A DNA stretch of 15,433 nucleotides from a virus (taxonomy: Duplodnaviria > Heunggongvirae > Uroviricota > Caudoviricetes). How positions within the stretch are numbered: the first letter of the stretch is position 1; each line of letters opens with the position of its first letter. The stretch lies in IMG/VR virus record IMGVR_UViG_3300014970_000025, one strand, 5' to 3'. Below, piece after piece: positions 1 to 15,433 of the stretch. The notes below the pieces were generated by a model. The model worked only from the letters and a program-made list of their open reading frames with translations, made no database searches and was not told the origin of the DNA. The position numbers and the translations under genes are program-made.

Positions 1-831
1 ACTCAGTAATATCCATTTTGCAATATCTATGAATTATTTGTGAGACGTATATTAATGAACATTGCAAGGGCTCACAAGCAGTAGTGTTGAGAAAACCATC
101 GGGGAAATGAGGCTAAGCCTTTGAATTTACAAGTACAAAAAAGATACTTTTCCTCATAATGTGAATTAATTTTATGTTTCGTTTGATGATTGGACCGGTC
201 TCGAAAACCGGAGTAGGGGCAACTCTACCGGGGGGGCAAATCCCCCTCTCTCCGCCACTTTATCAATGACTTATCTCCCGACTTCCCGCCTTGCTTTTCC
301 TAAACAGAACAATCGTAGAATATTCTTGAAGGGTTAGATCGTCACTGTTTTCTGTTCGATACTGTGACATTCAGCACTTGATTCGCTATGGATCTGACAG
401 GAAGGTTTCGAGCGAAAATCTGCAGTTATTCAGTCGTTTTCTTATCGGTCACCATTATTCTTTTAGACATTGATCCTACAAAGCTGCCGCAAAGTTGGTG
501 GTGGGAACTGAAGTTGCGTAGAGAAGGGGTCAATACCCGGAGGCAAACATGGGCTGGCAAAAGTGTAGCGGTATTAGGCGCAGCTATTTAGCCTAGTTAT
601 GTTTTATGAAAACTTGATATCATATAAGTGTCTTACTTATTGGCTGTAAATAAGGTTTTCTAAGGAATTGTTTCTTTAGTATCATTTGTAACTGTAACGG
701 AATTTATAATCCTTTGCTTTATTTTTACGGTATTTTTTATCACACCCTATTTTTTGTGTGGTTTTTTATACTGAAGTTTGGCAAAGTGAACTTTATATGC
801 ATATACTTCATCCTGGTTTCAGTTAAATTGG

Positions 832-1584
832 GTGGATGATATGGCAACTACATGTTCAGTTATATTGATTTTGGAGTCCTTTGATGTTTATTTCGGAAAA
901 GAGAGAGTGTTTCTGGATAGAGGTTTATCTGTACTTGTCGACTCTAGCTATAGAGATTTTTTCCTGACATATCCTGAAAGAGTGATAGTGGCGGATTTTG
1001 GCGCTGAGTTTATTAGTCGCTATTTGAAAGCTAATAACTTAAGGGATATTTCTGATTGTAGGGAATATCCATCTTATTTAAAAATAAACTTTGCTGACTT
1101 CAGTTTAATTAAAGGATTAATTAGTTGGGCTAATCACTGTGCTGAATATATAGAAATTTTTGATGAGTCTATTGCTTTTACATGTCTCTCTGCATTTTCT
1201 TCTGAAAAACAATTTGGAGTATTTCTGTTTGGATGTTTGAAAAGCACAGGGGCTAAAGTTAAAACGATTATTCATACGGATTTATCTGCACCATGGCATC
1301 TTAAGGATATATCATCAAGATTATATCTCAGCGAAAGTTTACTAAAGAGGAAATTGAAAGAAGAGGGGGTATCATTCAGTAAGATCATACTTGATGAGAG
1401 GATGCAAATGGCTGAATATTTACTCAGCACTCGTTGTTATCCTGTTAGTAAAGTAGCTAAGGTCTGTGGTTATGCCAGTGTCTCATACTTTACTTATGTA
1501 TTTAGACGTTATTTTGGTGTTTCTCCAAGTCAATACTCTCAGAGGAGTTCAGAAAGTAAAATTCTTACTCACCAGGGAATCTGA
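832..1584 (+). CDS. AraC-family transcriptional regulator, AppY/EnvY/AdiY-like (250 aa)
   Basis: Intact 250-aa ORF. C-terminal double HTH region (WHLKDISSRLYLSESLLKRKLKEEGVSFSKI...VAKVCGYASVSYFTYVFRRYFGVSPSQY) matches the AraC/XylS signature and resembles, from memory, E. coli AppY ([22 protein letters not shown]...QKCGYNSTSYF). Preceded by a very AT-rich upstream region (600-830), typical of horizontally acquired AraC regulators. Start may be 832 or 841. Confidence 0.85.
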   Translation: MDDMATTCSVILILESFDVYFGKERVFLDRGLSVLVDSSYRDFFLTYPERVIVADFGAEFISRYLKANNLRDISDCREYPSYLKINFADFSLIKGLISWANHCAEYIEIFDESIAFTCLSAFSSEKQFGVFLFGCLKSTGAKVKTIIHTDLSAPWHLKDISSRLYLSESLLKRKLKEEGVSFSKIILDERMQMAEYLLSTRCYPVSKVAKVCGYASVSYFTYVFRRYFGVSPSQYSQRSSESKILTHQGI

Positions 1585-1625
1585 TCATTGTTCTTGCCCC
1601 CTTATTTCCAGACAGGGGGTGTATC

Positions 1626-2062
1626 TTAAGTTAACGTTACCCGCTGACGTCGATATTCTCGCGGAGAGCGATAACCCAACGCACTGTGCGGATGGTTTTC
1701 ATTGTAATGTTCGATCGCCACTGCAAGATTATGCAATGCCGTTCTTACATTCGGTTTCGGCATGAACGCGATGTAGTCTTCCTTCATCGTTTTCACGAAC
1801 CTTTCTGCAATTCCATTACTCTGAGGACTGCTGATTGCCGTTGTGCAGGGCTCCAGATTCAACTCTCTGGCGAACTGCCGTGTTTCATGCGCTCTATACG
1901 CTGAACCGTTATCTGTCAGCCACTGGATGGACTGTTCCGGTACTTTATCGCCAAAGCGTTTTTCTATCGCTCCTAACATGACATCCTGCACTGTCGCTTT
2001 ATCGTAACCTCCCGTGCTTGCGGCCCAGTCTATGGCTTCACGATCGCAACAGTCCAGGGCGA
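1626..2062 (-). pseudogene. IS3-family (IS2-like) transposase OrfB, C-terminal fragment (rve/DDE integrase core remnant)
   Basis: Minus-strand translation ...[51 protein letters not shown]...[14 protein letters not shown] matches the C-terminal end of IS3-family OrfB and resembles IS2 InsD as recalled. The frame is open only to an in-frame stop near 2063; the N-terminal part and OrfA are absent; no inverted repeats identified. Confidence 0.8.
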
Positions 2063-2338
2063 TTCATCTGGGCCAATCCTTGCTCATAACAGGCATTCAC
2101 TTCAGTCATGGCAGAAAGGTATGCATGCTGGAGAAGTCGTGAAAGAAAAGAAGACTGCTGCGCCGTTTGTCGTCACGTTTATCTTCATTGGCTATGCAAG
2201 TCGTAATACAAGGTGGGACAAAACTGAGACACATAAGGCCTCGCAATGGCTTGCAAGGCTTTACATGTTTTGATGTGGTGGGACGTGTGAGCGCAGTGTT
2301 GATGGGGTAATGCTTTGAATTAGAAGCGGATTCTTATA

Positions 2339-2384
2339 ATTCGTAATGCGAAGGTCGTAGGTTCGACTCCTATTATCGGCACCA
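2339..2384 (+). repeat. thrW: 3' 46 nt of tRNA-Thr(CGU) gene (anticodon loop to CCA): attachment-site core / direct repeat; not a complete tRNA
   Basis: ATTCGTAATGCGAAGGTCGTAGGTTCGACTCCTATTATCGGCACCA matches, from memory, the 3' part of E. coli thrW (T-arm GGTTCGACTCC, acceptor 3' strand, CCA). The 5' half (GCCGATATAGCTCAGTTGG...) is not present upstream, so this is a partial copy, as left at junctions of tRNA-integrated elements. Confidence 0.75.
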
Positions 2385-2989
2385 TCAAGAAAATCAATAA
2401 CTTAGCTTAACTTCTCTAAGAAATTGTATCTTCTGTTATCACTTACAAACGCCTATACGTTGTTATGGGCTTTGGTAGTGTAACACGTATGGGCGAGTAG
2501 TTCCCAGGCTCAACCTCGTAACAAGTTCCTTTGAAGCTGGAAGACGTGCCACCGTCTCTAAACCTTCTACCAAAACTCTTAGCAAGATGTTCCACACCTG
2601 GCGCGGTGTCCAATGATGCTACACGTCGTGAGACGTTGCAGAGGATAAACAGGCTAAATGATGGGAAGAGTTTTAAGTGCAATAGTGGATTAAAGCCCAC
2701 CTCTTCAAAACCTAACTTGATCGGGAAAGAATCAAGCTCTAGCACGGTTTCGTCCACCGGAGTACAACGGGTGCCTGATAAGAGAAGAACTGCTAAGACT
2801 TCATAGCTTTTGTGAAAAAGCCCTTTTTAGTGGATACGCCTACGGCGCTTATTTTTTGGTATAACCATCAAAGGCGCTTTATGGCTCCTATTGTCTTGAA
2901 AATGTATCTTTACTTGTATTGTGTTTTATGCGTAGTCTCCCTGTGTAGTATGTAACTTGTTAATTTTCATATGAATACAGAGGCAAACG

Positions 2990-3148
2990 ATGAAAAACAT
3001 TGCAGCTATCAAACGTAATAACCGCAAGATTCACGCTCGTAAGTTCCTGTCTACGCCAGAAGGAAAAGCCTGGCTAGAGCGTAAACAGAGAGAGAACGAA
3101 GAAAGAAAACTCCTTAGTGAGTTGAAATGGCTTAGAGAGGATTTCTGA
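2990..3148 (+). CDS. small basic hypothetical protein (52 aa; MKNIAAIKRNNRKIHARKFLSTPEGKAWLERKQRENEERKLLSELKWLREDF)
   Basis: ATG at 2990 preceded by GAGG about 7 nt upstream; below the 60-aa cutoff of the ORF track. Lys/Arg-rich and helical in character. No recognised family. Confidence 0.4.
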   Translation: MKNIAAIKRNNRKIHARKFLSTPEGKAWLERKQRENEERKLLSELKWLREDF

Positions 3149-3309
3149 AAATCTCCAGAACGCAACAGGGCGCATTCTAACGCTGTTTTCATTGCTTGGT
3201 ATAGGGATTATAGGTGATGTGTGTTTAATGCGTCTGTGAGCTTTTTTTGTGCCTTATTTTGCATTTTCATAATGCAGGAGAGAACACGGAAAGCCTTAAA
3301 ATTAATTAT

Positions 3310-3480
3310 TGGGGTATTTAAGGCTATTTTTAGGTGATTTAAGGGTATTAAACTTGATTTAATTGGTTAAAATATAAACAGATAGTTGTGTATCTTATTG
3401 GTTTATAAGGTTATTTTTAAATAAAGGTAAATAAAAAATAAATACCCATAAATAGCTATAAATACATCTAAATACCTATA
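3310..3480. repeat. iteron-like repeat arrays in AT-rich DNA (candidate origin or regulator-binding array)
   Basis: Three ~20-21-bp spaced units (G/T)ATTTAAGG(G/C)TAT at ~3314, 3335, 3355, with a related unit at ~3401; then TAAATA at 3428, 3439, 3449 and 3459, 3469 with exact 10-bp phasing for the last four (ATAAATACCC / ATAAATAGCT / ATAAATACAT / CTAAATACCT). Confidence 0.55.
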
Positions 3481-3491
3481 TCCCCTCCCTT

Positions 3492-3875
3492 ATGGCTAGA
3501 TTGCGAGAGGTGCTTAACGCGATTTTCAGCGCCCCCCGATCTGGAAAATCCAGAATCCCCAAATATCAGCAAGGAATTTTCTTGCGTAATCAACATCGTT
3601 TTTACCTATTAAATCATTACACAGAAAGCCTTTCTGTAATGTCTCTCACTAAACTTTCACTAAACACGAGAATGATCGGTTTTATGTCGGATCAGATGCT
3701 AGAAACAGCACCACGTCTCACAAGGGCTGTAAGCGATGAAACCAGTGTTTATGCGGGTGCAGGTCAAAATATAGGCCAAAATCCATTTAACATAATAAAC
3801 GTAATATGCACTAAGGAACACATAGAACGCCTTGAGTTGATGTATCAGGGGAAAAGTGGTGGATTTTTTACGTAG
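3492..3875 (+). CDS. hypothetical protein (127 aa), doubtful
   Basis: ORF present in track but no Shine-Dalgarno (ATG preceded by CCCCTCCCTT), composition unremarkable, no recognisable domain. May be non-coding. Confidence 0.25.
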   Translation: MARLREVLNAIFSAPRSGKSRIPKYQQGIFLRNQHRFYLLNHYTESLSVMSLTKLSLNTRMIGFMSDQMLETAPRLTRAVSDETSVYAGAGQNIGQNPFNIINVICTKEHIERLELMYQGKSGGFFT

Positions 3876-3894
3876 GAGCACGAGAGGGCTTCTA

Positions 3895-3922
3895 TTGACT
3901 TTTGTATGCTATGAAATATAAT
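3895..3922 (+). promoter_or_regulatory. near-consensus sigma-70 promoter (TTGACT-N16-TATAAT)
   Basis: TTGACT at 3895-3900 and TATAAT at 3917-3922, 16-nt spacer; directs rightward transcription into an ORF-poor region. Confidence 0.5.
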
Positions 3923-4356
3923 AGAAGGTTTTTATTTTTATGTTGATAGTGATTGCACATTAAAGATTGAAAGCAAATTTAAACATAAATTTTCAACACG
4001 TGAAAGAAACTTGTTCGACAAATAATAGATTGATTTTTAATCAACAATTTCTGATAGTGCTCTGTAAGCCGCATTACACAAGGCTTTGCGAAAGTGATGT
4101 AAAAGTGAAGAAAGCTAACATTGCTCTTTTAAGCCACTTTTCATTGAATTTTTAGTATGGAATTACATAGGGATTAATCATCAATTACATTGAATTTAAG
4201 CCTGTTTTAGATAGCAAGAAACACTTTTACTGATTATAAGAAGATCATTGCACAGATGTTATGTGATGGATGTAACGGTAGGTCACTGTGAACTATCCCC
4301 TACAGAATTTTGTTACCTATTAGATCAACTATCAAACTACAATTAAATTATCTTTT

Positions 4357-4576
4357 ATAAATTCTTTTATCTTTAAAGAATAATTATAGGGATACCCGTT
4401 GGATGTAACGATGGGTTACATCGGCAGATGACCGGGGGGGTCGGTCACGATGACCGGGGGGGGTCGGTCACGATGACTGACAATAAGATTACTTTAATAA
4501 TACTAATAATAAAACTAACATCTATAATACTAATAAATTCTTTTATCTTTTAAGAATAATTATAGGGATACCCGTT
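4357..4576. repeat. 44-bp direct repeat pair (43/44 identical) flanking a hairpin and tandem G-tract palindromes
   Basis: DR1 4357-4400 and DR2 4533-4576: ATAAATTCTTTTATCTTT(A/T)AAGAATAATTATAGGGATACCCGTT. Between them: hairpin GATGTAAC-gatgg-GTTACATC (4402-4422); tandem units GATGACCGGGGGGGTCGGTCAC (4427-4448) and GATGACCGGGGGGGGTCGGTCAC (4449-4471), each containing the palindrome TGACCG-N7-CGGTCA; partial third unit 4472-4480. Confidence 0.8.
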
Positions 4577-4581
4577 AGGGG

Positions 4582-4655
4582 AGTCTAACGACTATCCCTT
4601 AATCTATTGGCATTCGCCAGAACCTTGCACAAGTTAGAGTGTTAGTCGTTAGACT
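4582..4655. repeat. 12-bp perfect inverted repeat AGTCTAACGACT / AGTCGTTAGACT separated by 50 bp
   Basis: Arms at 4582-4593 and 4644-4655. The core CTAACG recurs at 4823-4830 (TCTAACGA) and in a bulged hairpin GCGTTACCCC-ttt-GGGGatgcTAACGC at ~4889-4914. Confidence 0.7.
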
Positions 4656-5183
4656 GCTTGTCATAACACATAGTTTTTGTTTGTTGATGTTAGTTAGTAG
4701 ATCTATGTTCGCTAATGCCGCTCACAACGAATATGTAATCTACTATGTGCAAATAGCCTACGGCTTGCGTAAGGCTAAATAGTCTTGCGCTGTGCGCAGA
4801 ACGATAATTAACTAACTACCATCTAACGATCATCAATCATCTAAAATAAATTTCTTGTGCAATGTTCTTGCGAATGCAATTAGGGTAGCGTTACCCCTTT
4901 GGGGATGCTAACGCATAACTATAGATCAACCATCAAACAGACAAAAAAGAAAAATATGGTTTAAAGATGTTAGGTAGTAGATGAGTTTCTACCGCTTAAA
5001 TCAAGCCGTAGGCGAGCAAAACAACCTCTACATAAGGGAATGTATTGTTTTTATCAAAATCTCGTCAGAATGCGTTTTAGAGCGTTTTAGCGGATAATGA
5101 AGAATAGCACCACACAGGAGAGCACGAATTGATAAGAAAAAATGTAAGCGCATGAAAAAGATCAGGTTTTTTATGAAAAGGTA

Positions 5184-5212
5184 TTGACAAATGTTTCTTT
5201 ATATGTAATAAT
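5184..5212 (+). promoter_or_regulatory. sigma-70-like promoter (TTGACA-N17-AATAAT with upstream TG)
   Basis: TTGACA 5184-5189, TGT then AATAAT 5207-5212; sits ~120 bp upstream of the first gene of a + strand gene cluster. Confidence 0.5.
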
Positions 5213-5330
5213 AGGTATTAAAGGGACAGGAAAATATTCTTATCCTCTAAGTAATTAAACCAATGCACCGCACTTTGAAGCCCAAGGCTTGCAAGGTGTC
5301 TATTTCTTTTAACTGAATAAGGAGTTTTTT

Positions 5331-5513
5331 ATGAAATGGTTTACATCGGAACGCGTCGTAGAGGCATTTAAAAAAGGTGAGCTAACACGACATCAAATAG
5401 TAATGAATCGTAATATGGCAAGGAGTCGAGGTTATCCAGAGCGTGAAAAATGCTTTGACGATGCACTAAAAATTATTGATGAACTGCGTAAGGCAGAGGC
5501 AGAGAAAGAATAA
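5331..5513 (+). CDS. small hypothetical protein (60 aa)
   Basis: Strong SD (AAGGAG, 6-nt spacing) before ATG 5331; product MKWFTSERVVEAFKKGELTRHQIVMNRNMARSRGY..., no family recognised. Confidence 0.55.
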   Translation: MKWFTSERVVEAFKKGELTRHQIVMNRNMARSRGYPEREKCFDDALKIIDELRKAEAEKE

Positions 5514-5534
5514 TAACAAGAGAAGGAGAAAACT

Positions 5535-5705
5535 ATGAGCGAAACTACAGAAAAGAAAAGACAACCACGCACTTGCTTTCATATTCCTGATGAAGTATTT
5601 CAGGTGTTATTTAAAGAAGCAAGAAGTAAACGTATCACTGTTACAGATTACATTCTTGATATGTTGAAAAGAGAGGCTGAAACACTCTCAAATAAAAGCA
5701 AGTGA
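5535..5705 (+). CDS. Arc-like ribbon-helix-helix (RHH) DNA-binding protein (56 aa)
   Basis: SD AGGAG before ATG 5535; below ORF-track cutoff. CFHIPDEVFQVLFKEARSKRITVTDYILDMLKRE aligns by eye with P22 Arc (FNLRWPREVLDLVRKVAEENGRSVNSEIYQRVMESF): beta-strand followed by two helices, RHH pattern. Confidence 0.65.
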   Translation: MSETTEKKRQPRTCFHIPDEVFQVLFKEARSKRITVTDYILDMLKREAETLSNKSK

Positions 5706-5759
5706 TTTTTATCACCATAGTAGCGCCGTAGAGCGTGATTACATACAGGAGATTTTTTA

Positions 5760-6386
5760 ATGATTAACCAACCAACTTTTACAAAACACTATGACACGTT
5801 CGATAACATCTCGAAGATTTACTCTGATAAATTGCCTCAAGGAAAAGATTTAGAGCTATTACACATTGTGCTTTATTTTCGATTTCTTAGTTATCAGGAG
5901 AACAATCTTAATTGTTACGAAAGTCACGAGACATTAGCTAAGATTTTTAAGGCTTCGGTATCAACGATTCAACGTAAGATTAAAGATCTTAAGGAGATGG
6001 GGTTATTAGATACATCCCCGCACTCTGATCCTAACATTACATCCCTTGTTTATACTGCTCTCCCTCTCACAGATGCACACATTACACCACCGGAAGACGT
6101 GAAATTCGCTGTAAACGTAGAACGGGCTGCACCTGAATATCAGGAAACATTAGAAGCGACACACTCTATTGAGCAGGAAACACAGGAATCAGCGTTCCCT
6201 GAGCGGCCCGAAATTTTTACTTGGCTTCTTTCCCTTGATAAGAAGAAACCACCACACGAAGAAACAGAAGATTTTGTAAAACGAGCATTAGATTCAAAGA
6301 ATATCTATCTTTGTGAAAATGATTTTGACTCTTTGATAATTGATCTCAAAAGTGAGAGCACAATATATGATTCACTACCCTTCTAA
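5760..6386 (+). CDS. winged-HTH DNA-binding protein, replication-initiator/organizer-like N-terminal domain (208 aa)
   Basis: SD AGGAG before ATG 5760. N-terminal LLHIVLYFRFLSYQENNLNCYESHETLAKIFKASVSTIQRKIKDLKEMGLLD follows the pattern of phage/plasmid Rep-type winged-helix domains; C-terminal half acidic and unassigned. Confidence 0.7.
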   Translation: MINQPTFTKHYDTFDNISKIYSDKLPQGKDLELLHIVLYFRFLSYQENNLNCYESHETLAKIFKASVSTIQRKIKDLKEMGLLDTSPHSDPNITSLVYTALPLTDAHITPPEDVKFAVNVERAAPEYQETLEATHSIEQETQESAFPERPEIFTWLLSLDKKKPPHEETEDFVKRALDSKNIYLCENDFDSLIIDLKSESTIYDSLPF

Positions 6387-6521
6387 GGAGAATAAATGAC
6401 TTATAACATCACAAACAATCAATAACAACAGATCGGGCAATACATATGGCAAATGCATTTATGGCGATATTCATCGTAACAATGGCATTCAGTTTTTATA
6501 ATCCACATAAAAAGAGGGAAA

Positions 6522-6905
6522 ATGGGAAGAAAGAAGAAGAACAACTTAAAACGTATTGAAAAAAACAGTAACTTCAATTCAACAAGACAACGTCCACCGA
6601 CACACACCAATAACGAAATTCCAGGGGAAGAGATAATATTTATTCTTGAAACAGAATCCCCTGAATTAAGCGATGAAGAATTAGAAATAATCCAGTCAAT
6701 GCCAGGCGTTTACTTTCGCCCAAGAACAAGAAAACAAACTATCATTTCTGATGGCACTCTGAAACGTTGGCAGCTTTTAGGGTTTAGCTCCTATCATCAT
6801 TTTTTGGGATTTAACGCTTTCAATAATTGTGTAGGTGGTGCATCGGAAGTCGATCTGATGGCTCATTTAGAAGATACATTAGCTTCTAACAAACGTTCTA
6901 ACTAA
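6522..6905 (+). CDS. hypothetical protein (127 aa), basic N-terminus and acidic middle
   Basis: SD GAGGG before ATG 6522; no family recognised. Confidence 0.5.
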   Translation: MGRKKKNNLKRIEKNSNFNSTRQRPPTHTNNEIPGEEIIFILETESPELSDEELEIIQSMPGVYFRPRTRKQTIISDGTLKRWQLLGFSSYHHFLGFNAFNNCVGGASEVDLMAHLEDTLASNKRSN

Positions 6906-6920
6906 TAAAATGATGGGCGT

Positions 6921-7166
6921 ATGTATAAGCGCCCAATGAAAATATTCAAAAAAGGAAAAATAATGATTGGCTATATTCAAGAAACACAATTATTTCAGAT
7001 GATCCTGTCTGATGCAAAAAACTATGCTGAGTTAATCCGACTGGCAAAAGAAACAGAAGACTACGAAGCATTAGAGCGTTATCGTGATGAAGTGCTGACG
7101 CTCAAGACACCTTTTAACATCGTATTGAATATGATTAATGATGCATTACAAGGAGAAGCCGCATAA
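6921..7166 (+). CDS. small hypothetical helical protein (81 aa; alternative start 6963 gives 67 aa)
   Basis: Internal ATG 6963 has the better SD (AAGGAAAAATAATG). Stop overlaps the next start (TAATG at 7164-7168), suggesting translational coupling. Confidence 0.45.
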   Translation: MYKRPMKIFKKGKIMIGYIQETQLFQMILSDAKNYAELIRLAKETEDYEALERYRDEVLTLKTPFNIVLNMINDALQGEAA

Positions 7167-7474
7167 TGGAAGAAGATATTAGCAATGCAATGGAACAACT
7201 TTTAGATCTGACTATCTCACTACAAACAAGAATAAATCAAGCCTATTCAGATTTATGTGATTACACGCTCTCTCAATGCGTTATTAGCTTAATGAAGGTG
7301 AATGTAAGCCTTGACGATTTTATCTCTCTGGTGAGCGATTTAGAGCTATCAGAGGACGATGCAAAACAGTGTAATCAAATCATCACAGACATCGCCACCA
7401 CGTTAAAGGTTGCAAGTGAAGAGATTCAGCAATTAGTAGATGATTTAGCAAAAAGTGCTATTTTCTCTAAATGA
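7166..7474 (+). CDS. acidic helical hypothetical protein (102 aa)
   Basis: Start overlaps the upstream stop; product rich in D/E/L/I; no family recognised. Confidence 0.55.
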   Translation: MEEDISNAMEQLLDLTISLQTRINQAYSDLCDYTLSQCVISLMKVNVSLDDFISLVSDLELSEDDAKQCNQIITDIATTLKVASEEIQQLVDDLAKSAIFSK

Positions 7475-7487
7475 TAATGAAAATTAT

Positions 7488-7516
7488 TTGCATTTATAAT
7501 GATTTTGTTATATAAT
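7488..7516 (+). promoter_or_regulatory. near-consensus sigma-70 promoter (TTGCAT-N17-TATAAT)
   Basis: TTGCAT 7488-7493, TATAAT 7511-7516, plus a second TATAAT at 7495-7500; followed by ~0.9 kb without any + strand ORF above ~25 codons. Confidence 0.5.
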
Positions 7517-8401
7517 AATTTTAGGGGTAGATAAAAAGATTTTAGTTGGTGTTAATCCTTCTACTGTCATAAATCCCTGCATATGGAAGGTGATAGCCTC
7601 AAAGGTTGAGTGGCATTAACCTCTAACAAATATTACCTTCCATCTCTCAAGAAGTTTTAGAATAATCATAACTCCCTCTTTGATTGTTGATTGTTTCTAC
7701 GTTGTGTTGATGAATGTTGTTAGGCATTGTGCTTAATTTTGATAAAAGCGGGTAGGTGTTATCTCCTTGCCCTTCCCGCTCTTATTTTTCATCTATGCTT
7801 ATCCTAAAGCTCCTTATTTTGTCCGAAAACATTAAAGAGCCTTACACTGATAGTTATATTTTATAACTATTTACTAACATCATTAAACTCTTATTTAATG
7901 ACGGAAGTTAGTAACAGAATAATCTATTAAGTTGTTGTCAAAAAACTATCATCTGCATAGCGTTAGCCGCAAGTAGAGAGAGTTTAGCTAAGAATGGTGC
8001 AATAAACTTTGGAAATATTGATAGCAAAACGGGTTTTATAGAATGCGGATCTATAAGCTTTGGTTGTAAAAACGATTTTCTGAAACGGTAGATTACTGTT
8101 GGTGTAGTTAATCCTATTAAAATTTGATCTGTGAGTAGATTAGAATTGGAATAGTGATTCCTTAAAGCCTTACTTTGTTGCATCCACAGCAAAAACAGGC
8201 AGCGGTTTAGCCCCCGCATCGAATAGCAGGATCGTAGATTCCAAAGGGTTGGCCCCTCCTAAGAGCCAATTTCTCCTGCGGTCCTGTTATTCACCCTTAA
8301 CATATCTCTAAGCGTATTTATAAAAGTATTCTTAGAGATAACGTTAAACCTCCTCAAAGTTGACTTATCACAATATGTATTTTGCCCGATACAAAATAAA
8401 T

Positions 8402-8452
8402 AAGCCCCTTGCTATTGTTGATTGAACCTCTTATAGCCTGGGGCTTTTTATT
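8402..8452 (+). terminator. stem-loop followed by T-run (possible intrinsic terminator or RNA 3' structure)
   Basis: AAGCCCC (8402-8408) pairs with GGGGCTT (8440-8446), followed by TTTTATT; loop is long (31 nt) so classification is tentative. Confidence 0.3.
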
Positions 8453-8480
8453 ACTCGGAACATAACGGAATCGTTATTTT

Positions 8481-8690
8481 ATGAAACAAGAAATTATCCT
8501 GAAATATGGCAATGAAAAGTTAACACTAACTGAGGATGTGTTGAATGCTACAGCCTACGCGCTTGGCATCACTCCTACAGAATTAAAGAAACAGTGTGAA
8601 CGTCTTTATAAGGCTGACAGCAATAAACCATCTCACCAAGATTTGATTAATGCTAAAGCTCAACAAATCAAACAATCTAAGGAAAAATAA
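8481..8690 (+). CDS. small hypothetical protein (69 aa), possible HTH-like segment
   Basis: Stop overlaps the start of the next gene (TAATG at 8688-8692). Segment ATAYALGITPTELKKQ is HTH-like. No family assigned. Confidence 0.5.
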   Translation: MKQEIILKYGNEKLTLTEDVLNATAYALGITPTELKKQCERLYKADSNKPSHQDLINAKAQQIKQSKEK

Positions 8691-9064
8691 TGGCTATTTT
8701 AAAATTAAGCGATGTTTTCCCACATCGTAAAAGCATCACTGACGTAGTGAGCTATGCAACCGACCCTTACGCGGCTGTAGAAAGCAAAAAATTTGCAGCA
8801 CTTGCACAAGATGTAACGTGCGGCGACCTCATTGATTCATCCGGCGCTAAATATGTTAGCGGCGCTGATGTTCTTGTCGTTGTGTCTGACTTCGTAACTG
8901 CTGATTCAAATAAAACAGTTAACGTGCTTCGTGCTAATGCCGGACTCGTTTGCATCAAAGCTGATGCCCTGAATGCCGAAGGCGCTGTAAAAGAAGCTGC
9001 TATTGCAGCTCTCGCTGCTAAAGGCTTCCAGCTTGAAGGCTTCCACTCTGTTTTCACATCTTAA
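8690..9064 (+). CDS. putative head decoration protein (lambda gpD/SHP-like position and size, 124 aa)
   Basis: SD AAGGA; lies immediately upstream of an E-like major capsid gene, as D does in lambdoid head modules; size typical; Ala/Val/Gly-rich. Assignment rests mainly on synteny and composition. Confidence 0.45.
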   Translation: MAILKLSDVFPHRKSITDVVSYATDPYAAVESKKFAALAQDVTCGDLIDSSGAKYVSGADVLVVVSDFVTADSNKTVNVLRANAGLVCIKADALNAEGAVKEAAIAALAAKGFQLEGFHSVFTS

Positions 9065-9080
9065 GAAGGAATAAATAATA

Positions 9081-10109
9081 ATGATTATCGGAAATGAAGT
9101 GGTTGATCTTGCTCCACTGTTTGAATTAAACGATACCCGTAACTATCTGCTGTCTACTCTGGATTTTACTGATCCTGTGCCTGTAGAAAGTCACAAAGTG
9201 GCTGTTTCCCAGCTTATCGAGAGCAATGAATCTCTGTTCAACCATCCTACAAGCCGTTTTAGCTCTGAGCATAACGTTACTAAACGTGAAAACGCGGAAG
9301 AGTGGCTGATTGAAATTCCTTATTTCCTGCGTGAAGACCTGATCACACCGCAGGACGTGCAAGGCAAACGAAAAGCCGGAAGCTCTATTGAAGAAACACT
9401 GCCGGATCTGTATGCGGAATATATCGCTAAACACAATGTTGCATTCCAGCGCACTAAAGAAAGCATCCTCGCGGCTTCTCTGTTCTCTGGCAAGACGCAT
9501 ACCCCGAAAACTGACGATGTTCTGATCGACTACAGCACTCTGTTCGGTGTGTCTCCAATGACTGCAACCGTTGACGCATCCAGCACCAACACAATGACTG
9601 TGTTCAAACAGTTTGACCAGATGCATACGGATATGATTGCTAAAGCACAAAGCCAGGCTGCAACCATTGAGCGTGTTGTTGTGTTCTGTAAGCCTGCGGC
9701 ATTCAACGCTATTCGTTACAGCGTTGGCATGGTTAATGCGTTCCAATATGCAAGCCCTGTAGACGATGCAAACGTGGTGTTTAATGTGCGCTCTCTGCTG
9801 CCTGGTGTAACTACTTTCACCATTCCAGGAACTAACATTGATCTGATCAAAGTGACTGATCCGCTGCTGCTGGCACATATGACCGCAGACGCTGTAGCTG
9901 TTCCTAAATTCGCTAAAGGTGCAGGTGTTTACCAATCTATTTATGGCGCTCCTTCCAGTTCCTTCGATCTGCTGTCTCAAGGCGCTAAAGAGTATTACAG
10001 CTATGCTTTCGAATCGAATCGCGGCGACGCAGTGCACGTAGTGACCGAGAATAGCTCGCTTGTGGTTAACCACGGTGTTGGCTTCTCTGTGCAGATCACA
10101 GTAGCGTAA
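9081..10109 (+). CDS. phage major capsid protein, lambda gpE-like family (342 aa)
   Basis: SD AAGGAA; length nearly identical to lambda gpE (341 aa); C-terminus ...VVNHGVGFSVQITVA resembles gpE ...DPDEFVSVQLA and internal ERVVVFCKPAAFNAIRYS resembles gpE NIIVFDPKGWALFRSF (by recall). Confidence 0.8.
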   Translation: MIIGNEVVDLAPLFELNDTRNYLLSTLDFTDPVPVESHKVAVSQLIESNESLFNHPTSRFSSEHNVTKRENAEEWLIEIPYFLREDLITPQDVQGKRKAGSSIEETLPDLYAEYIAKHNVAFQRTKESILAASLFSGKTHTPKTDDVLIDYSTLFGVSPMTATVDASSTNTMTVFKQFDQMHTDMIAKAQSQAATIERVVVFCKPAAFNAIRYSVGMVNAFQYASPVDDANVVFNVRSLLPGVTTFTIPGTNIDLIKVTDPLLLAHMTADAVAVPKFAKGAGVYQSIYGAPSSSFDLLSQGAKEYYSYAFESNRGDAVHVVTENSSLVVNHGVGFSVQITVA

Positions 10110-10273
10110 AAAGTGTTAAAGACGTTCCCCTACGTCTGGAAATAATCGGGGGGCAATAAGGGTAAGGAGATTAACTAACCTGTAGGCGCAAATACAGTAA
10201 CGAATCTCTTTGCCCTTTTTGTTTTTCTACTGTCTACAAATCCAAATAAAAATATATATGTGAGAGAAAACCA

Positions 10274-10471
10274 ATGAACACAGAAAATTCACAGGCATTA
10301 ATTCTTAAATCTGTAAAAGAACTGGCAGCTATTAGCGATGACTCAATAATCAATGTCAGTGCCTTATGCAGAATGCTTTCAATTGATGCAAATAATGTGC
10401 GGCAGCGTGTGTTTCAGACCGGGTGCAGCACTTTCGAAGCAATCCAATATTATTGTTCTAAAAAACAATAA
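10274..10471 (+). CDS. small hypothetical protein (65 aa)
   Basis: Weak SD; segment VSALCRMLSIDANNVRQR is HTH-like; uncertain. Confidence 0.35.
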   Translation: MNTENSQALILKSVKELAAISDDSIINVSALCRMLSIDANNVRQRVFQTGCSTFEAIQYYCSKKQ

Positions 10472-10505
10472 CAAACAACAATCATAATACAGGGAAACAA
10501 TCAGT

Positions 10506-12347
10506 ATGTTAGAACTAAACGTGGCACGCCTCTCGAACGTTGTCACCTTCGAAGTTAACCGACCATCATTAGAGAAAGCAAAAGCAGAAGTAGAAAAACT
10601 TCGTAAACAAATGGCGGCGGTGAAAGATATAGAATTGCGTGTTAAGACACATAAACAATCAACCGCTAAAGCAAAAAAAGACGTAGACGATATTGCTAAA
10701 AAGCAAGCACAGGCAGATAAAGCCAATGCTAAAGCACAATTAGCCGCTCAACGTGTAGTTGCAAGAGAACAAAAAGCCCTGGCAGCACGGAAAGAGAAGG
10801 CTGAATTAAAGCTTTTAGACGTTGGAGCAAGCATTAGCGCATTGCACCGTCTTTCTGTAGCGGAACAATATAAAGCTATTGCACAGGCTAGAGAAATTGC
10901 CCTCCAATATGAAAGAGGCGCTATTAGTCTGGCACGTATGAATAGCCAAATGAAACGCCTACAACAGCAACAACGTAAGATTAATGGCAATCGTAACGCT
11001 CACGCTAAAGCCTATGCACCTGTTAAGGGTAGCGGGAGTATTGGCGGCGGTGCTGCGGCTGTTATGCTGGGTGGCTTAGGCGCTGGCGCTGCATATATGG
11101 CTATGAGCAAAGCTTCTGAATTTGTTACTAACAGCTTTGCGAATGCTGAAACGCTGGGAGAATTGTATAGCCGTGCGAAGCTGGGCGGTGTAGACGTTAA
11201 CCAGATGAACAATATTGAGCAATGGGCGTATAAAAACGGCGTTGATTCAATGATGGGGGATCAAGGTAAACGTAAGTATCTCGATCAGATGAAAGATGTG
11301 CGTGAGCGTGCAACCAAAAGCTATGATGAGGCTGAATATGTAGTCGATAAAAAAACAGGCAAAGGTGAATGGAAGGGCGGCGATAGCGGCATCAACGTTC
11401 TCATGAACGAAGGATTCTTAACTAAGAAAGATTTGAAAGACTTTGCTGATAATCCTGCTGGCCTGGTTAGTAAAGCAGTTCAGGGAATGGTAGCTAAAGG
11501 CTATTCAGATGCACAAATCGGTAGTCGTCTTGAAGACTTGGGCGATGATTTGATGCTCACCTCTAAATACTGGACACGCTCCGCTAAAGAAGTGGAACAA
11601 TCAGCACGAGAACAACGAGAATCAGGGCGCTGGGTAACACAGGCACAACAGGAAAGCGTTATTAAATTCCGTGAACTGAATAATGCACTTAGTGGGCTTT
11701 CTGACTCACAAGGGATCGCCTTTGTTGATGGCTTTATGAAATCTCTTGATCCGAAAGTGATTGAAGAGTTTAAAAAGAGCATGGTTGCAATGCTGCCAAT
11801 GTTTACCAAATTAGGCGAGGCTATCGGCGGATTGGTTAACGCTGTAATGAAAGCAATCAACTGGCTGATGAAAAACGACGAGAAGACGGCAGCTATTCAG
11901 AAGAATTTAGGTGATGCACCGCCACTATCTAACGAAGGAATGAAGCAGAATCTTTCTAATCTCACTCCTGATCAATATAAAGGCGCTGGCACCGGAACAA
12001 CTAAGCCAGATAACAGCAATTCCCTGGTTAACACTATTAAAAGCTGGTTTATGCCAGAAGAAACGGTAGGTGGGGCGCAGGCTGTAAATCAATACAGTCT
12101 CGAAGGACAAAACATTGCAAATCTGAAACAGAGTGCAGCACAACAAGCTTTCAAGGCTCCTTCTTACACCTTTGCACCTGTTATTAACTTCAATCCAGAA
12201 TTACAAGTAAATGCAGAAGTGCCGCTAACTATCGAATCAGACACCGGACGATTGAGCGAATTTATCGACTTCAAATCAAAGGCATCCTCCGCTGAGTTTA
12301 GCAAGCTATTAACGCTGGGTGTTATGTCAGGCGGGTCAACCTATTAA
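10506..12347 (+). CDS. tape-measure-like protein: long Lys/Ala/Gln coiled-coil N-terminus, Gly-rich hydrophobic segment, large C-terminal region (613 aa)
   Basis: Residues ~20-170 are heptad-like charged helix (EKAKAEVEKLRKQ...KAQLAAQRVVAREQKALAARKEKAELK), followed by GSGSIGGGAAAVMLGGLGAGAAYMAMS (membrane-like). This architecture is typical of phage tail tape-measure or ejection proteins. No enzymatic motif seen. Confidence 0.5.
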   Translation: MLELNVARLSNVVTFEVNRPSLEKAKAEVEKLRKQMAAVKDIELRVKTHKQSTAKAKKDVDDIAKKQAQADKANAKAQLAAQRVVAREQKALAARKEKAELKLLDVGASISALHRLSVAEQYKAIAQAREIALQYERGAISLARMNSQMKRLQQQQRKINGNRNAHAKAYAPVKGSGSIGGGAAAVMLGGLGAGAAYMAMSKASEFVTNSFANAETLGELYSRAKLGGVDVNQMNNIEQWAYKNGVDSMMGDQGKRKYLDQMKDVRERATKSYDEAEYVVDKKTGKGEWKGGDSGINVLMNEGFLTKKDLKDFADNPAGLVSKAVQGMVAKGYSDAQIGSRLEDLGDDLMLTSKYWTRSAKEVEQSAREQRESGRWVTQAQQESVIKFRELNNALSGLSDSQGIAFVDGFMKSLDPKVIEEFKKSMVAMLPMFTKLGEAIGGLVNAVMKAINWLMKNDEKTAAIQKNLGDAPPLSNEGMKQNLSNLTPDQYKGAGTGTTKPDNSNSLVNTIKSWFMPEETVGGAQAVNQYSLEGQNIANLKQSAAQQAFKAPSYTFAPVINFNPELQVNAEVPLTIESDTGRLSEFIDFKSKASSAEFSKLLTLGVMSGGSTY

Positions 12348-12357
12348 TCATCACTGT

Positions 12358-12373
12358 GGGGCTGTTTAGCCCC
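12358..12373 (+). terminator. GC-rich hairpin GGGGCT-gttt-AGCCCC with weak U-tract
   Basis: Perfect 6-bp stem, 4-nt loop, 10 nt after the stop of the 613-aa gene; followed by CTTAAAT rather than a strong T-run. Confidence 0.35.
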
Positions 12374-12394
12374 CTTAAATAAGGATTACAAATT

Positions 12395-13072
12395 ATGGCA
12401 ATGGGTCCGTTAACCATTGGTCGCCCGACTGAGGCGAAAATCAACAGCACAAGCAACGATAGCAACGGTAGAACAACCAAAGGGGGTAACGGCTTTGCGA
12501 TCATTGCCTCTAACCTCGGCAGTGGTGCAAATGCTGCTTACAATGACTACCAGGCATTATCATTTGATAGCGTGGAATCGACGAAAGTTAGCAGAAATGC
12601 GGACGTTACAAGCTATGCCGTCGAATCAGGATCAGAAGTTAGTGATCATGTTCAAATACGGAATAACAAGTTCACATTACAAGGGCGTATCTCTGAAACC
12701 GTATTGAAGCTCAATCCCGATATGATTAAGAATGCGGGAATTAACGGCAATAGACGTATGCTTATGCTTGAATACCTAAATCAGTTGATGGACAGTCGCC
12801 AACCTTTCCTACTTGTCACTGAGTTAAAAAATTATGACAACGTTGTGTTAGTTGGCATGTCTTACGAAGAAGAAGCAAGCGAAAGTATATTGTTTACTCT
12901 TGATTTTGAGCAAATTCGTCTTGTCTCTAAGGCCACCACTAATGCTATTGCTGTAAAAACAGCACCAAATAAATCTGTAGGGGGACAGGTTAAAATGCAG
13001 GTAAATACAACAGAACAGAAAAATCAAAAAAGCCCAGGGCAAGACGTTGTAACACCAGTATTTAAACAATAG
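12395..13072 (+). CDS. hypothetical protein (225 aa), Ser/Thr/Asn-rich N-terminus; possible virion-associated protein
   Basis: SD AAGGA 9 nt upstream; follows the tape-measure-like gene; no family recognised. Confidence 0.6.
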   Translation: MAMGPLTIGRPTEAKINSTSNDSNGRTTKGGNGFAIIASNLGSGANAAYNDYQALSFDSVESTKVSRNADVTSYAVESGSEVSDHVQIRNNKFTLQGRISETVLKLNPDMIKNAGINGNRRMLMLEYLNQLMDSRQPFLLVTELKNYDNVVLVGMSYEEEASESILFTLDFEQIRLVSKATTNAIAVKTAPNKSVGGQVKMQVNTTEQKNQKSPGQDVVTPVFKQ

Positions 13073-13153
13073 CCTTAAACGCCTATGAAACGCTCTGTAA
13101 CGATGTAATTATAAAAGAGGCTACCAATCTATGTTGAAGCCTCCTTATTACGT

Positions 13154-14488
13154 CTATGGCGTTGTTTTACGCCTTAAATTTGATTTTTTATTGATTGATA
13201 AGCCTTTCTCTATTTCAGGGTAGCGTAAAAGCTCAATATATTTTTTAAGCTCTACTGGAGAAGCTGCATTTTTGCTATATGTGCGGAATGTTTCTGTATT
13301 GCCGCGTGTATGGCCCAGGAGAAGGGCGATCCTGTCTTCTGGAATTTGATTTCGATCAAGAAGCTGTGCTACTCCGTGTCTCAGAGAATGAAACACTTTC
13401 CTTTCTGTTCCCTTTTCCCCTAAAGCCTTTCGTTTAGCTCTTGTAAATCGTTGTGTATGCCACGTAGAGCGTTTACCGTCAGCACGTTCTGTAATGCTGG
13501 CGTGATAGAACAAAAAGCCATTGTGAGGCTTTTCACGCAGCGACAACACCAACGGAGTGATAAGGCTATGTACAGGCACAACACGTGCCGCTGCTTTCGT
13601 CTTTCCCTGTGTGATTTCAAAACACAGCACACCTTCGATCTCTTTCACATCGTCTATTGTGAGACTTGCTATCTCATTGATCCGCATACCTGTATATAAA
13701 CCGATAAGACACAAAGCCGTCATTTCTTTGTTTTCTGCTGAATTACCGGAAAATACTTGCAACACCTGCAATAGCTCTTTGTTAGAAAATGCCTCGTAGC
13801 TCTCTCTACTTTGTGCCACATCAAGCCTATGCCCTCGCCAGGGGGAGAGCGCCCTTTCTGGCGCATCGTGGTAACGTGATGAAGCTAACTCCCATAGCTG
13901 GGCCATTGGGCTGATATAATTTGCAATTGATTGTTGTGAAAGAGTTTTTTGCATGTGTTCAATCCAGCCTGTAACAGTGGTGCGGCTTACGTCTTGCAAT
14001 GCAATATCAGGCTTTTTACGGTAGGAGAGAAACATCTCTACCGCTTTTCTTGCCTTAGCTAAAGTGGCTGGCTTCTTCTTCGTGCTGTTAATTGTCAGGT
14101 AGATTTCAAGAATTTTAAGCAATGACGGACACGAAGACGCTGTATCTTGCATTCTGGTAGCTGTTTTGGCGTATTTAGCCTTACTGCGTAACAGTTCCAG
14201 CGTGTTTTCTATTGTGCTGTTTACAGGGGCAACACTCTCCCGTAAGCAATGGTATTCATCTGCAATCTGATCACGCTTTCTACGTGCAACACGAAGATTA
14301 CTTGTGTGCAGACTTCTGACAAACGTCCTTTTTCCTTCAAAAAAGGGCTGCATATACACAGGCAGCGTGATCCTTAAATAGTAGTTACCGTAAGAATCAC
14401 AGATTAAGTATTGGTTAGGCTTGTATCTCATAAAATCTCCGGCTAAAGTGTCGGAGCGTTTGTAATGTGAAAATTGATTGTGACGCAT
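13154..14488 (-). CDS. tyrosine site-specific recombinase (phage/P4-type integrase, 444 aa; alternative start at 14431)
   Basis: Catalytic-domain motifs TGMRINE (Arg), HSLRHGVAQ (His-x-x-Arg), LLGHTRGNTETFRTYSK (His, Tyr nucleophile); N-terminal YLRITLP...FFEGKRTFVRSL typical of tRNA-site integrases; lies adjacent to a tRNA-Thr-derived repeat. Confidence 0.9.
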   Translation of the reverse strand: MRHNQFSHYKRSDTLAGDFMRYKPNQYLICDSYGNYYLRITLPVYMQPFFEGKRTFVRSLHTSNLRVARRKRDQIADEYHCLRESVAPVNSTIENTLELLRSKAKYAKTATRMQDTASSCPSLLKILEIYLTINSTKKKPATLAKARKAVEMFLSYRKKPDIALQDVSRTTVTGWIEHMQKTLSQQSIANYISPMAQLWELASSRYHDAPERALSPWRGHRLDVAQSRESYEAFSNKELLQVLQVFSGNSAENKEMTALCLIGLYTGMRINEIASLTIDDVKEIEGVLCFEITQGKTKAAARVVPVHSLITPLVLSLREKPHNGFLFYHASITERADGKRSTWHTQRFTRAKRKALGEKGTERKVFHSLRHGVAQLLDRNQIPEDRIALLLGHTRGNTETFRTYSKNAASPVELKKYIELLRYPEIEKGLSINKKSNLRRKTTP

Positions 14489-14528
14489 AGAAAATGATTA
14501 TTTTTCTATAAGATTCAATCAATTAGTA

Positions 14529-14591
14529 ATGGTCGTAGGTGATGGCATTAACACGAGATTAATCGAGTGTTTTACTCCTATTATCGCACCA
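14529..14591 (+). pseudogene. degenerate tRNA-Thr 3'-end copy (ptwF-like att remnant)
   Basis: GGTCGTAGGT (14531-14540) ... ACTCCTATTATCGCACCA (14574-14591) matches the thrW 3' end except for a ~33-bp insertion replacing the T-loop and one missing G; same orientation as the 2339-2384 copy. Confidence 0.6.
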
Positions 14592-14717
14592 TTAAAATCA
14601 AAGAGTTACCCCATATTTAAATACACCACGTTTCCTCCTGTGCCGCATTTGTGCCATTGTAACCTTGGCAATTCATCAAAATACTGTTCTGACATCAGGC
14701 AGTGCAGGTGCAGCTAT

Positions 14718-15128
14718 TTAAACCAATTGCTGCCGCCATTCTTTGACGTAGTCAATCAGGGCGCGGAGCTTTGGTGCAATATTGCGACGCTGTGGGAAAT
14801 ACAGATAGAAGCCCGGAAATTGTGGAAGAAAGTCATCAAGCAGCGATACAAGCTTACCGCTTTCAATATATGGCCTGAAAGTTTCCTGAGTGGCAATTGT
14901 TATTCCTCCGCCGGCAAGAGCCAGCCTCAACATCAGACGCAGATCATTAGTCGTAATCTGCGGTTCAATCGCAAGGTCGAAAGTTCTCCCGTTTTCTTCA
15001 AATGGCCAGCGATAAGGCGCAACCTCCGGGGACTGACGCCAGCCGATACACTTATGGGTATTTCCCCCGGAGGCGAGAAAGCGCTCTCCACGCCCGGCCG
15101 CAAGGATCAGGACGACGGGGGCAGGCAT
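14718..15128 (-). pseudogene. LysR-family transcriptional regulator, C-terminal substrate-binding-domain fragment (no HTH)
   Basis: C-terminus ...LALAGGGITIATQETFRPYIESGKLVSLLDDFLPQFPGFYLYFPQRRNIAPKLRALIDYV is a typical LysR C-terminal end. The N-terminal HTH is absent because the upstream gene ends at ~15104. Consistent, from memory, with the yagP pseudogene next to ptwF in E. coli K-12. Confidence 0.65.
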
Positions 15129-15433
15129 GAATCCTCCTCCTGATGGAGACGTACAGAGGCGACTTCTGCCAGCACGGAGAGTGCCAGAGTATGCGCATCC
15201 CGGGCTTTGGGGAATATCCCGACGGGTGCCCGGATTTGCGTTGTTTCCTCCCTGGACCATCCCAGCTCGTGGAGCTTTTGCAGACGTAACGTGTGGGTTC
15301 GATAGCTGCCCAATGCGCCGAGATAAAAGGGTTTTGCTTCTCGCGCGGCCTGCAACACTGGCAGCTCCCGGTTGAGATCATGGCACAGCAAAATGACCGC
15401 CGTGTCGGTATCGATCTGAGCGCTGGCTGAGGC
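15104..15433 (-). CDS. XdhC/CoxI-family molybdenum-cofactor insertion chaperone (PaoD-like), C-terminal part; gene continues beyond window end
   Basis: Minus-strand frame is open to the window edge: ...DTDTAVILLCHDLNRELPVLQAAREAKPFYLGALGSYRTHTLRLQKLHELGWSREETTQIRAPVGIFPKARDAHTLALSVLAEV, characteristic of XdhC C-terminal domain; GC-rich, core-genome-like composition. Confidence 0.7.

Follow-up and report, generated by a model that had tools for sequence, protein, structure and literature searches.

The 15,433-nt stretch of DNA analysed here (IMG/VR record IMGVR_UViG_3300014970_000025; hereafter, the window) carries an AT-rich chromosomal island of 12.2 kb (positions 2385–14572), integrated at the tRNA-Thr gene thrW. 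Its sequence suggests that the island is probably a member of a new family of satellites, packaged by virulent phages of the phi92 and phAPEC8 types. These phages, the Stephanstirmvirinae, are virulent myoviruses of ~150 kb and, since the structural relatives of the island are virulent, the island cannot be their prophage. The evidence includes a structural operon and a short non-coding site in the left half of the island. The genes of the operon are arranged in the following order:

8481–8690, plus strand: 69-aa (amino acid) protein at the head of the operon
8690–9064, plus strand: capsid cement (decoration) protein, gpD-like by its fold, counterpart of phi92 gp123
9081–10109, plus strand: major capsid protein of the HK97 fold and the lambda E family (PF03864, 9e-19), homologue of phi92 gp124
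10274–10471, plus strand: conserved 65-aa protein upstream of the tape measure gene
10506–12347, plus strand: tape measure protein of 613 aa (phrog_16051, 3.7e-32), homologue of phi92 gp134
12395–13072, plus strand: tail tube initiator (PF21821, Dit_like, 1.4e-27), homologue of phi92 gp135

In phi92, gp124 is the T=13 capsid protein, gp123 the beta-tulip cement protein, gp134 the tape measure and gp135 the hexameric tube initiator, according to a 2026 structure paper (PMC13450770). Matches to the respective PDB chains were obtained for the capsid protein (Phi92_gp124, 2.9e-18, in a profile search), the tape measure (Phi92_gp134, 1.9e-21) and the tube initiator (Phi92_gp135, 6e-55) of the island. 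The assignment of the cement protein is based on its fold; the hhalign comparison with phi92 gp123 was not significant (probability 1.8%), and both proteins end in VFTS. The 65-aa protein was considered as a counterpart of phi92 gp133, and this was rejected for lack of any similarity. The search for homologues covered 50,697 phage genomes. The best phage matches of the tape measure (26–31% identity, full length) and of the tube initiator (54%) belonged to Stephanstirmvirinae, and those of the capsid protein (24–26%) comprised Stephanstirmvirinae among other large myoviruses. The tape measure aligns over its full length with that of phage phiWec188. The tube initiator is 54% identical to Phapecoctavirus proteins, and its gene contains patches of DNA 82–87% identical to the phAPEC8 clade. 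The phage gene order, with cement next to capsid and, further on, tape measure next to tube initiator, is retained in the island. No match to the terminase, portal, protease, sheath, tube or lysis families of Pfam and PHROG was found in any open reading frame (ORF) scanned.

The second group of findings concerns the following site:

3501–3567, plus strand: candidate packaging or cleavage site of ~55 nt with a 40-nt core, copy of the terminal-repeat boundary of the presumed helper

The 40-mer at 3501–3540 is identical to nt 357–318 of phi92, and the flanks of the two are unrelated. The direct terminal repeat of phi92 is annotated at nt 1–343 (343 bp), which places its inner boundary (343|344) inside the 40-nt match, and the equivalent position in the window is 3514|3515. 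An AAATATC anchor closes the site at 3561–3567. For a relative of phi92, a terminal repeat of 342 bp was determined with PhageTerm (PMC12210895). Comparison of the non-coding left half of the island with all phages by blastn gave short matches in 66 records, almost all of the Stephanstirmvirinae type (~145–155 kb), and most of these records match through the boundary site alone. The ends of three phages were aligned. In all three, the sequence just beyond the right end of the repeat starts with AGCACCTCTC; the left end of the repeat starts with AGCACCTTCTC in two of them and is diverged in phi92. Both termini of those two phages are thus placed 5′ of one shared motif, the cut at either repeat boundary falling just 5′ of AGCACCTyCTC. 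GYGTTAAGCAC, the segment that every phage and island has in common, has the mapped terminus at its centre. The pattern TTAACG-N35-50-AAATATC occurs in exactly one copy, on the plus strand, in each of 29 matching element loci, which represent all the lineages except some truncated or diverged ones, and in one copy in each of four phage end regions, with a chance expectation of 0.01 per window. A second cut site of the left-boundary type was looked for in the island and none was found.

Two alleles of the site exist in E. coli islands, and their spacers match two separate sets of ~65 phage genomes each. The variable part of allele A is that of the phi92-type phages (most of the 66 records), and the spacer of allele B is that of the other 65 records (phAPEC8, ESCO13 and WPEC types), in which it lies ~270–360 nt from a genome end. 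One island (locus L036, ~4130–4200) has a recombinant site, the left half belonging to allele B and the right half to allele A. In islands of Buttiauxella (L012, 4501–4548) and Citrobacter (L015, 4969–5004), a promoter-like palindromic block (TTTGGCA...TGCCAAA) is copied as well; it originates inside the phage terminal repeat, and its order relative to the site is kept in the islands. A gut metagenome contig of 65.8 kb (L131) begins at the equivalent of window position 3509, 32 nt into the shared 40-mer. This start was rejected as a physical end, being best explained by an assembly break (k=33) caused by the repeat. We read the site as a putative terminus-generation or packaging signal of the helper, with a purely regulatory role as the main alternative.

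The island is not the only one of its kind and is no remnant. DNA related to positions 10274–13072 (65-aa ORF, tape measure and tube initiator) was found in ~556 of 5426 complete E. coli genomes, 182 of which hold at least 80% of this segment; among the carriers are O104:H4 strains and extraintestinal (ExPEC) and avian (APEC) pathogenic strains. Relatives of the capsid protein with 39–80% identity are encoded in Klebsiella, Citrobacter, Enterobacter, Cronobacter, Kluyvera, Buttiauxella, Serratia and others, and all those in other genera are located on chromosomal contigs. The order of small regulators, Rep module, homologue of the 127-aa protein, spacer, cement, capsid, small ORF, tape measure and integrase is kept across genera. 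The related islands reside at tRNA-Thr, tRNA-Gly(CCC) or tRNA-Leu(CAA) genes, their integrases are 34–55% identical and their Rep modules differ. The ratio of nonsynonymous to synonymous substitution rates (dN/dS) is 0.05–0.27 for the cement, capsid, tape-measure, tube-initiator and 127-aa genes (0.07–0.16 for the capsid protein), with no stop codons.

In O104:H4-type islands, the tape measure, tube initiator and integrase are 98% identical to those of the window, and identity is 27% for the cement and 20% for the capsid protein. A divergent cement–capsid pair amid genes 98% identical indicates that the head module has been swapped in these islands. The replacement head genes are located at 10215–11644 of locus L005; searches of Pfam and the phage database gave no match for the capsid protein among them. 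In the Klebsiella lineage (K. pneumoniae island, L020, 2968–5083), the left arm additionally contains a short integrase-like gene (205 aa) and one for a Dam methylase, and the tube initiator is missing. The IMG/VR matches represent integrated proviruses. A human-gut metagenome contig is 100% identical to positions 23–14628 of the window; the gut-metagenome contigs (11.5–14.6 kb) mostly break at the att repeats and show no terminal overlap.

The limits of the island and the features of its flanks are as follows:

2339–2384, plus strand: attL, a displaced 46-nt 3′ fragment of thrW, identical to the last 46 nt of this tRNA-Thr(CGU) gene
13154–14488, minus strand: tyrosine integrase (PF00589, 1.5e-17; DUF6538 and SAM-like domains)
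14529–14591, plus strand: attR, a split, degenerate 3′ end of thrW with the core at 14573–14590 and a 1-nt deletion
832–1584: AraC regulator of the left-flank prophage
1626–1991, minus strand: fragment of an IS3-family integrase core in the left-flank prophage
within 1–2338: partial GIY-YIG gene of the left-flank prophage

The left copy is exactly identical to thrW at 8001–8046 of a comparison E. coli locus (L001); the initial annotation, made from the sequence alone, had called it a perfect copy. Its use in that annotation as the end of the island holds for the attL core (19 nt, 2366–2384), but the same 46 nt also serve as attR of a separate upstream prophage: the fragment is the 3′ end of thrW displaced by the left-flank prophage. 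The degenerate right copy noted in the same annotation is real and is split, consisting of TAGTAATG-GTCGTAGGT, an insertion of 33 nt and then ACTCCTATTATCG-CACCA. The 19-nt 3′ core of the right repeat is ACTCCTATTATCGGCACCA, from which one G is lost in the window and which is whole in relatives. Comparison with K-12 showed that the host sequence resumes at 14574, so the 19-nt core is the real crossover region and the island extends from about 2385 to 14572. The described AT-richness was borne out, with a GC-content of 39.8% in the island versus 53% in the right flank. No complete tRNA was predicted in the window by ARAGORN.

Window positions 1–2338 are the distal end of a different, myovirus-type prophage integrated at thrW, and the island beside it indicates two elements in tandem at this gene. 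In other E. coli genomes, the island directly adjoins intact thrW, in the order proA-thrW-island-int-yagP′/pao or vat island. To the right of the island, a truncated LysR-family gene (yagP-like; 14718–15260, minus strand) is followed by paoD. This host flank is conserved and common even to K-12, where the site is occupied by CP4-6 with an unrelated IntF; the latter was rejected as a relative of the island integrase, the right flank alone being in common. In ExPEC strain SF-088 (locus L002, 22876–27655), the island adjoins the vat autotransporter island and a second integrase remnant, an arrangement indicating that several islands have accreted in tandem at thrW. An Rfam scan of the window yielded two sub-threshold matches alone, which were regarded as chance; one of them, at 203–254 on the minus strand, was to a plastid 3′ untranslated region family and scored 31.8 bits, the gathering score being 68.

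The remaining features of the island are located to the left of the structural operon:

2990–3148, plus strand: small conserved ORF of 52 aa (identity 96–100% with E. coli relatives, 78% with Kluyvera)
3438–3480, plus strand: tandem repeat of the 10-nt unit ATAAATACCT (4.3 copies), immediately left of the pac-like site
4250–4900, unstranded: repeat-rich, AT-rich region with direct repeats, putative replication origin
5331–5513, plus strand: 60-aa protein conserved across genera, with a weak NCBIfam match alone
5535–5705, plus strand: 56-aa protein with a ribbon-helix-helix-like pattern as read from its sequence
5760–6386, plus strand: Rep-like initiator of 208 aa with a winged helix-turn-helix (wHTH) domain (HTH_36, 3.7e-7; several PHROG replication-initiator families, ~1e-6)
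6522–7474, plus strand: three small genes encoding proteins of 127, 81 and 102 aa
7475–8480, plus strand: ORF-free spacer with two terminator hairpins (7747–7790 and 8402–8452)

The 52-aa ORF had no family match in profile scans. The putative origin contains a 44-nt direct repeat in two copies (at 4357 and 4533), a 23-nt tandem repeat in 2.3 copies (4427–4477) and repeats of TGGATGTAACG; together with the Rep-like gene, it forms the most variable segment among relatives. A sigma-70-like promoter was found at 5184–5212, upstream of the gene for the 60-aa protein, which is possibly a regulator or excision factor. The Rep-like protein is 29% identical to a 328-aa double-wHTH protein of Phapecoctavirus Mt1B1_P17, and 50 nt upstream of its gene (5718–5767) are 88% identical to the intergenic stretch preceding the double-wHTH gene of that phage. 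The 127-aa gene (6522–6905) is kept in all lineages examined; the AlphaFold2 model of its product (predicted local distance difference test score 55, predicted template modelling score 0.29) was too poor for a fold search. The spacer at 7475–8480, with hairpins of fold z-scores −3.5 and −3.6, has an arrangement of the promoter–terminator type and is possibly a gate for the structural operon. An antisense ORF within it (7938–8219) is not conserved as a protein. The spacer is conserved among the non-E. coli lineages, where it is not alignable to that of the window.

All genes of the island other than int are on the plus strand, and the ORF-free stretches (2385–5330 and 7475–8480) make up about 32% of it, close to the ~30% first reported. 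The initial annotation had also described an integrase, a Rep-like winged-HTH protein, iteron arrays, D-like and E-like head genes and a tape-measure-like gene, along with a single-strand layout and the absence of terminase, portal, protease, tail tube and lysis genes; the profile matches, the gpD-like fold and the direct repeats given above agree with each of these points. Its inventory had overlooked the tube initiator gene, and the Arc-like regulator that it proposed at 5535–5705 received no confirmation from a hidden Markov model match. 

Several other explanations of the island were considered. It may be a defence island, in which divergent structural proteins spoil phage particles as decoys or poisons and the copied site titrates the terminase, with no transfer in particles. 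The island does encode homologues of exactly those proteins that interact, namely the capsid–cement pair and the pair formed by tape measure and tube initiator; the exchange of head-module alleles between otherwise 98% identical islands resembles an arms race, and a relative is present in ~10% of E. coli genomes. We nevertheless regard this explanation as rather unlikely. No known defence family was detected in the island by PADLOC, and, taken together, the integrase, origin-like region, Rep-like protein and copied phage genome end make up the tool kit of a satellite. Known satellites both interfere and spread, so a defensive effect overlaps with the satellite model more than it excludes it.

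An explanation of lower probability concerns the ~55-nt site, which would be a transcriptional or regulatory element of the phage early region, copied for timing; the island would still be linked to the helper. In the phages, the site does lie between the promoter-like block of the terminal repeat, on its upstream side, and the first early gene, on its downstream side, and the Buttiauxella and Citrobacter islands have taken over that block in unchanged order. Against a regulatory element stand the centring of the common segment on the mapped terminus and the finding that, in two of the three phages, the other repeat boundary has the motif located just 3′ of the cut as well. In addition, the site as RNA does not fold better than shuffled sequence (z about −0.9).

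The two readings offered by the initial annotation besides or within a satellite-like one fare worst. That the island is the middle part of a formerly complete temperate phage, left over by erosion, is very improbable and can be considered largely refuted: the small number of structural genes, the extent of ORF-free DNA and the damaged attR core of the window copy would fit decay, but the same minimal gene set recurs across genera under purifying selection and free of pseudogenes, the phages structurally related to it are virulent and do not lysogenise, and integrases and tRNA targets that vary by lineage indicate active mobility. The presence of the missing genes in relatives, which the initial annotation itself had named as the finding that would refute its satellite-like reading, was seen in none of the related loci examined. 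Equally improbable is a lambdoid or other temperate helper: although the capsid and cement proteins are of the lambda E Pfam family and the gpD fold, respectively, the same folds occur in phi92 gp124 and gp123, the nearest phage matches of the tape measure, tube initiator and capsid protein come from Stephanstirmvirinae and further large myoviruses (~150 kb) with no lambdoid phage among the matches listed, the cis-acting site equals a Stephanstirmvirinae genome end, and tube initiators and tape measures of this type belong to contractile tails.

The satellite-like character itself, with a capsid and decoration protein of its own, as proposed in the initial annotation, is supported: many E. coli genomes have the island at thrW as a conserved unit whose ends are intact, and its reduced gene set recurs in other genera. 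The dependence on a helper for tails was only partly right, as two tail-core proteins are encoded by the island.

Comparison with known systems also bears out the early remark that the layout is unlike that of lambdoid prophages, P4, phage-inducible chromosomal islands (PICIs) or capsid-forming PICIs (cfPICIs). The island has the general make-up of a satellite, that of an element of ~7–20 kb with an integrase, att repeats and an incomplete set of virion and packaging genes. It resembles P4 in its size (~11–12 kb), integration at a tRNA gene and tyrosine integrase; P4, too, encodes a capsid decoration protein (Psu). P4 also carries the packaging site of its helper, for which the boundary copy is the candidate in the island, and is packaged in a small capsid, as is proposed here. 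P4, however, lacks a capsid protein, a tape measure and a tube initiator and re-sizes the P2 capsid with Sid; it possesses a large primase-helicase, cos ends and a temperate helper (P2), whereas the Rep-like protein of the island is a wHTH protein of 208 aa. No Pfam or PHROG match to the P4 markers (alpha primase-helicase, Sid, Psu, delta and epsilon) was found in any ORF scanned. Like cfPICIs, the island is a chromosomal element with its own HK97-fold capsid protein that would obtain the remainder from a helper. The cfPICIs encode portal, protease, head-tail adaptors, TerS and HNH proteins and take only tails, whereas the head module of the island consists of capsid and cement only, with no packaging genes and with two tail-core genes. 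The ORFs scanned gave no AlpA, primase or TerS-like match, these being markers of Gram-negative PICIs.

Virulent helpers, and reliance on their terminase and structural proteins, are known for the PICI-like elements (PLEs) of Vibrio cholerae (helper ICP1) and the PICMIs (minimalist chromosomal islands inducible by phages) of Vibrionaceae. In contrast to the island, PLEs remodel the coat of the helper with the scaffold TcaP and bring no coat protein, PICMIs carry no structural genes, and both occur in other hosts, with no homologous genes detected. With the Stephanstirmvirinae (phi92, phAPEC8 and phiWec188), the island shares the four structural proteins, gp123 by fold, and an identical or near-identical terminal-repeat boundary sequence. 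These phages are virulent, have genomes of 145–155 kb and about 250–350 annotated genes, whereas the island has ~15 genes, an integrase and att sites; the DNA in common is limited to ~50–80 nt of non-coding sequence and the patches in the tube-initiator gene. The features of a lambdoid remnant were not found, as the related loci examined hold the same minimal content and the best relatives are large myoviruses.

A life cycle consistent with these observations can be proposed. The island resides at a tRNA gene, here thrW, presumably through the activity of its tyrosine integrase, the gene, att repeats and tRNA targets of which are given above. Upon infection by the helper, it would excise and replicate from the repeat-rich origin by means of the wHTH Rep-like protein. 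The late operon would then be expressed from behind the promoter–terminator gate suggested by the spacer hairpins. The capsid protein and gpD-like cement of the island may assemble on the portal and scaffold of the helper into a shell sized for ~12 kb, by analogy with P4 and its T=4 shell. The helper terminase would recognise the boundary copy and package the DNA of the island; what is shown here is that the site is identical in sequence to the phage boundary, where it lies, and that its alleles match phage clades. Finally, the tape measure and tube initiator, homologous to those of the helper, would be built into helper-made tails. If a replicon of 12.2 kb were cut at a specific site, the resulting molecules would be much too small for a T=13 head, which offers a rationale for the private capsid–cement pair: such a pair could build a small shell.

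Several points weigh against a satellite packaged by these phages. Neither IMG/VR nor the metagenome contigs yielded circular forms or free forms with defined ends, and public data gave no direct sign of packaged ones. The island has a single boundary-like site, compared with the two used by the phages, which leaves the regeneration of its ends unexplained. Its capsid protein is 24% identical to that of the helper, and the fit with helper portal and scaffold is therefore assumed. The tube initiator is absent from several lineages, and we know of no established precedent or rationale for a tape measure in a satellite. In the window copy, the attR core has lost one nucleotide and a prophage is inserted between the island and thrW, so this particular copy may be impaired.

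In our assessment, the island would function like a satellite and yet lacks the marker sets of P4-like elements, PICIs, cfPICIs, PLEs and PICMIs, and probably represents a new satellite family and strategy. A wider proposal, which we regard as evenly balanced, is that it is the founding example of widespread Enterobacteriaceae satellites that parasitise large virulent myoviruses of the phi92/phAPEC8/rV5 type, a type with uses in phage therapy. Such satellites would copy the terminal-repeat boundary of the helper for cutting and packaging, replace its capsid shell and tail core (tape measure, with or without tube initiator), and exchange site alleles and head modules to track helper clades. No description of such an element was found in the searchable full-text literature, subscription-only papers lying outside the search.

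Confirmation would, to our knowledge, make this family the first one in E. coli and its relatives with virulent phages as helpers, and also the first case of a satellite known to supply a tape measure and a tube initiator of its own. The site would then also provide a 40–55-nt candidate for the so far uncharacterised packaging or cleavage signal of the Stephanstirmvirinae. The main model can be tested directly with existing strains and phages. Phages similar to phi92 and phAPEC8 are candidates for phage therapy and, with a relative of the island present in about one in ten complete E. coli genomes, it could lower the efficacy of such therapy. It could also give rise to transducing particles and mobilise virulence islands next to it, the vat island being an example.

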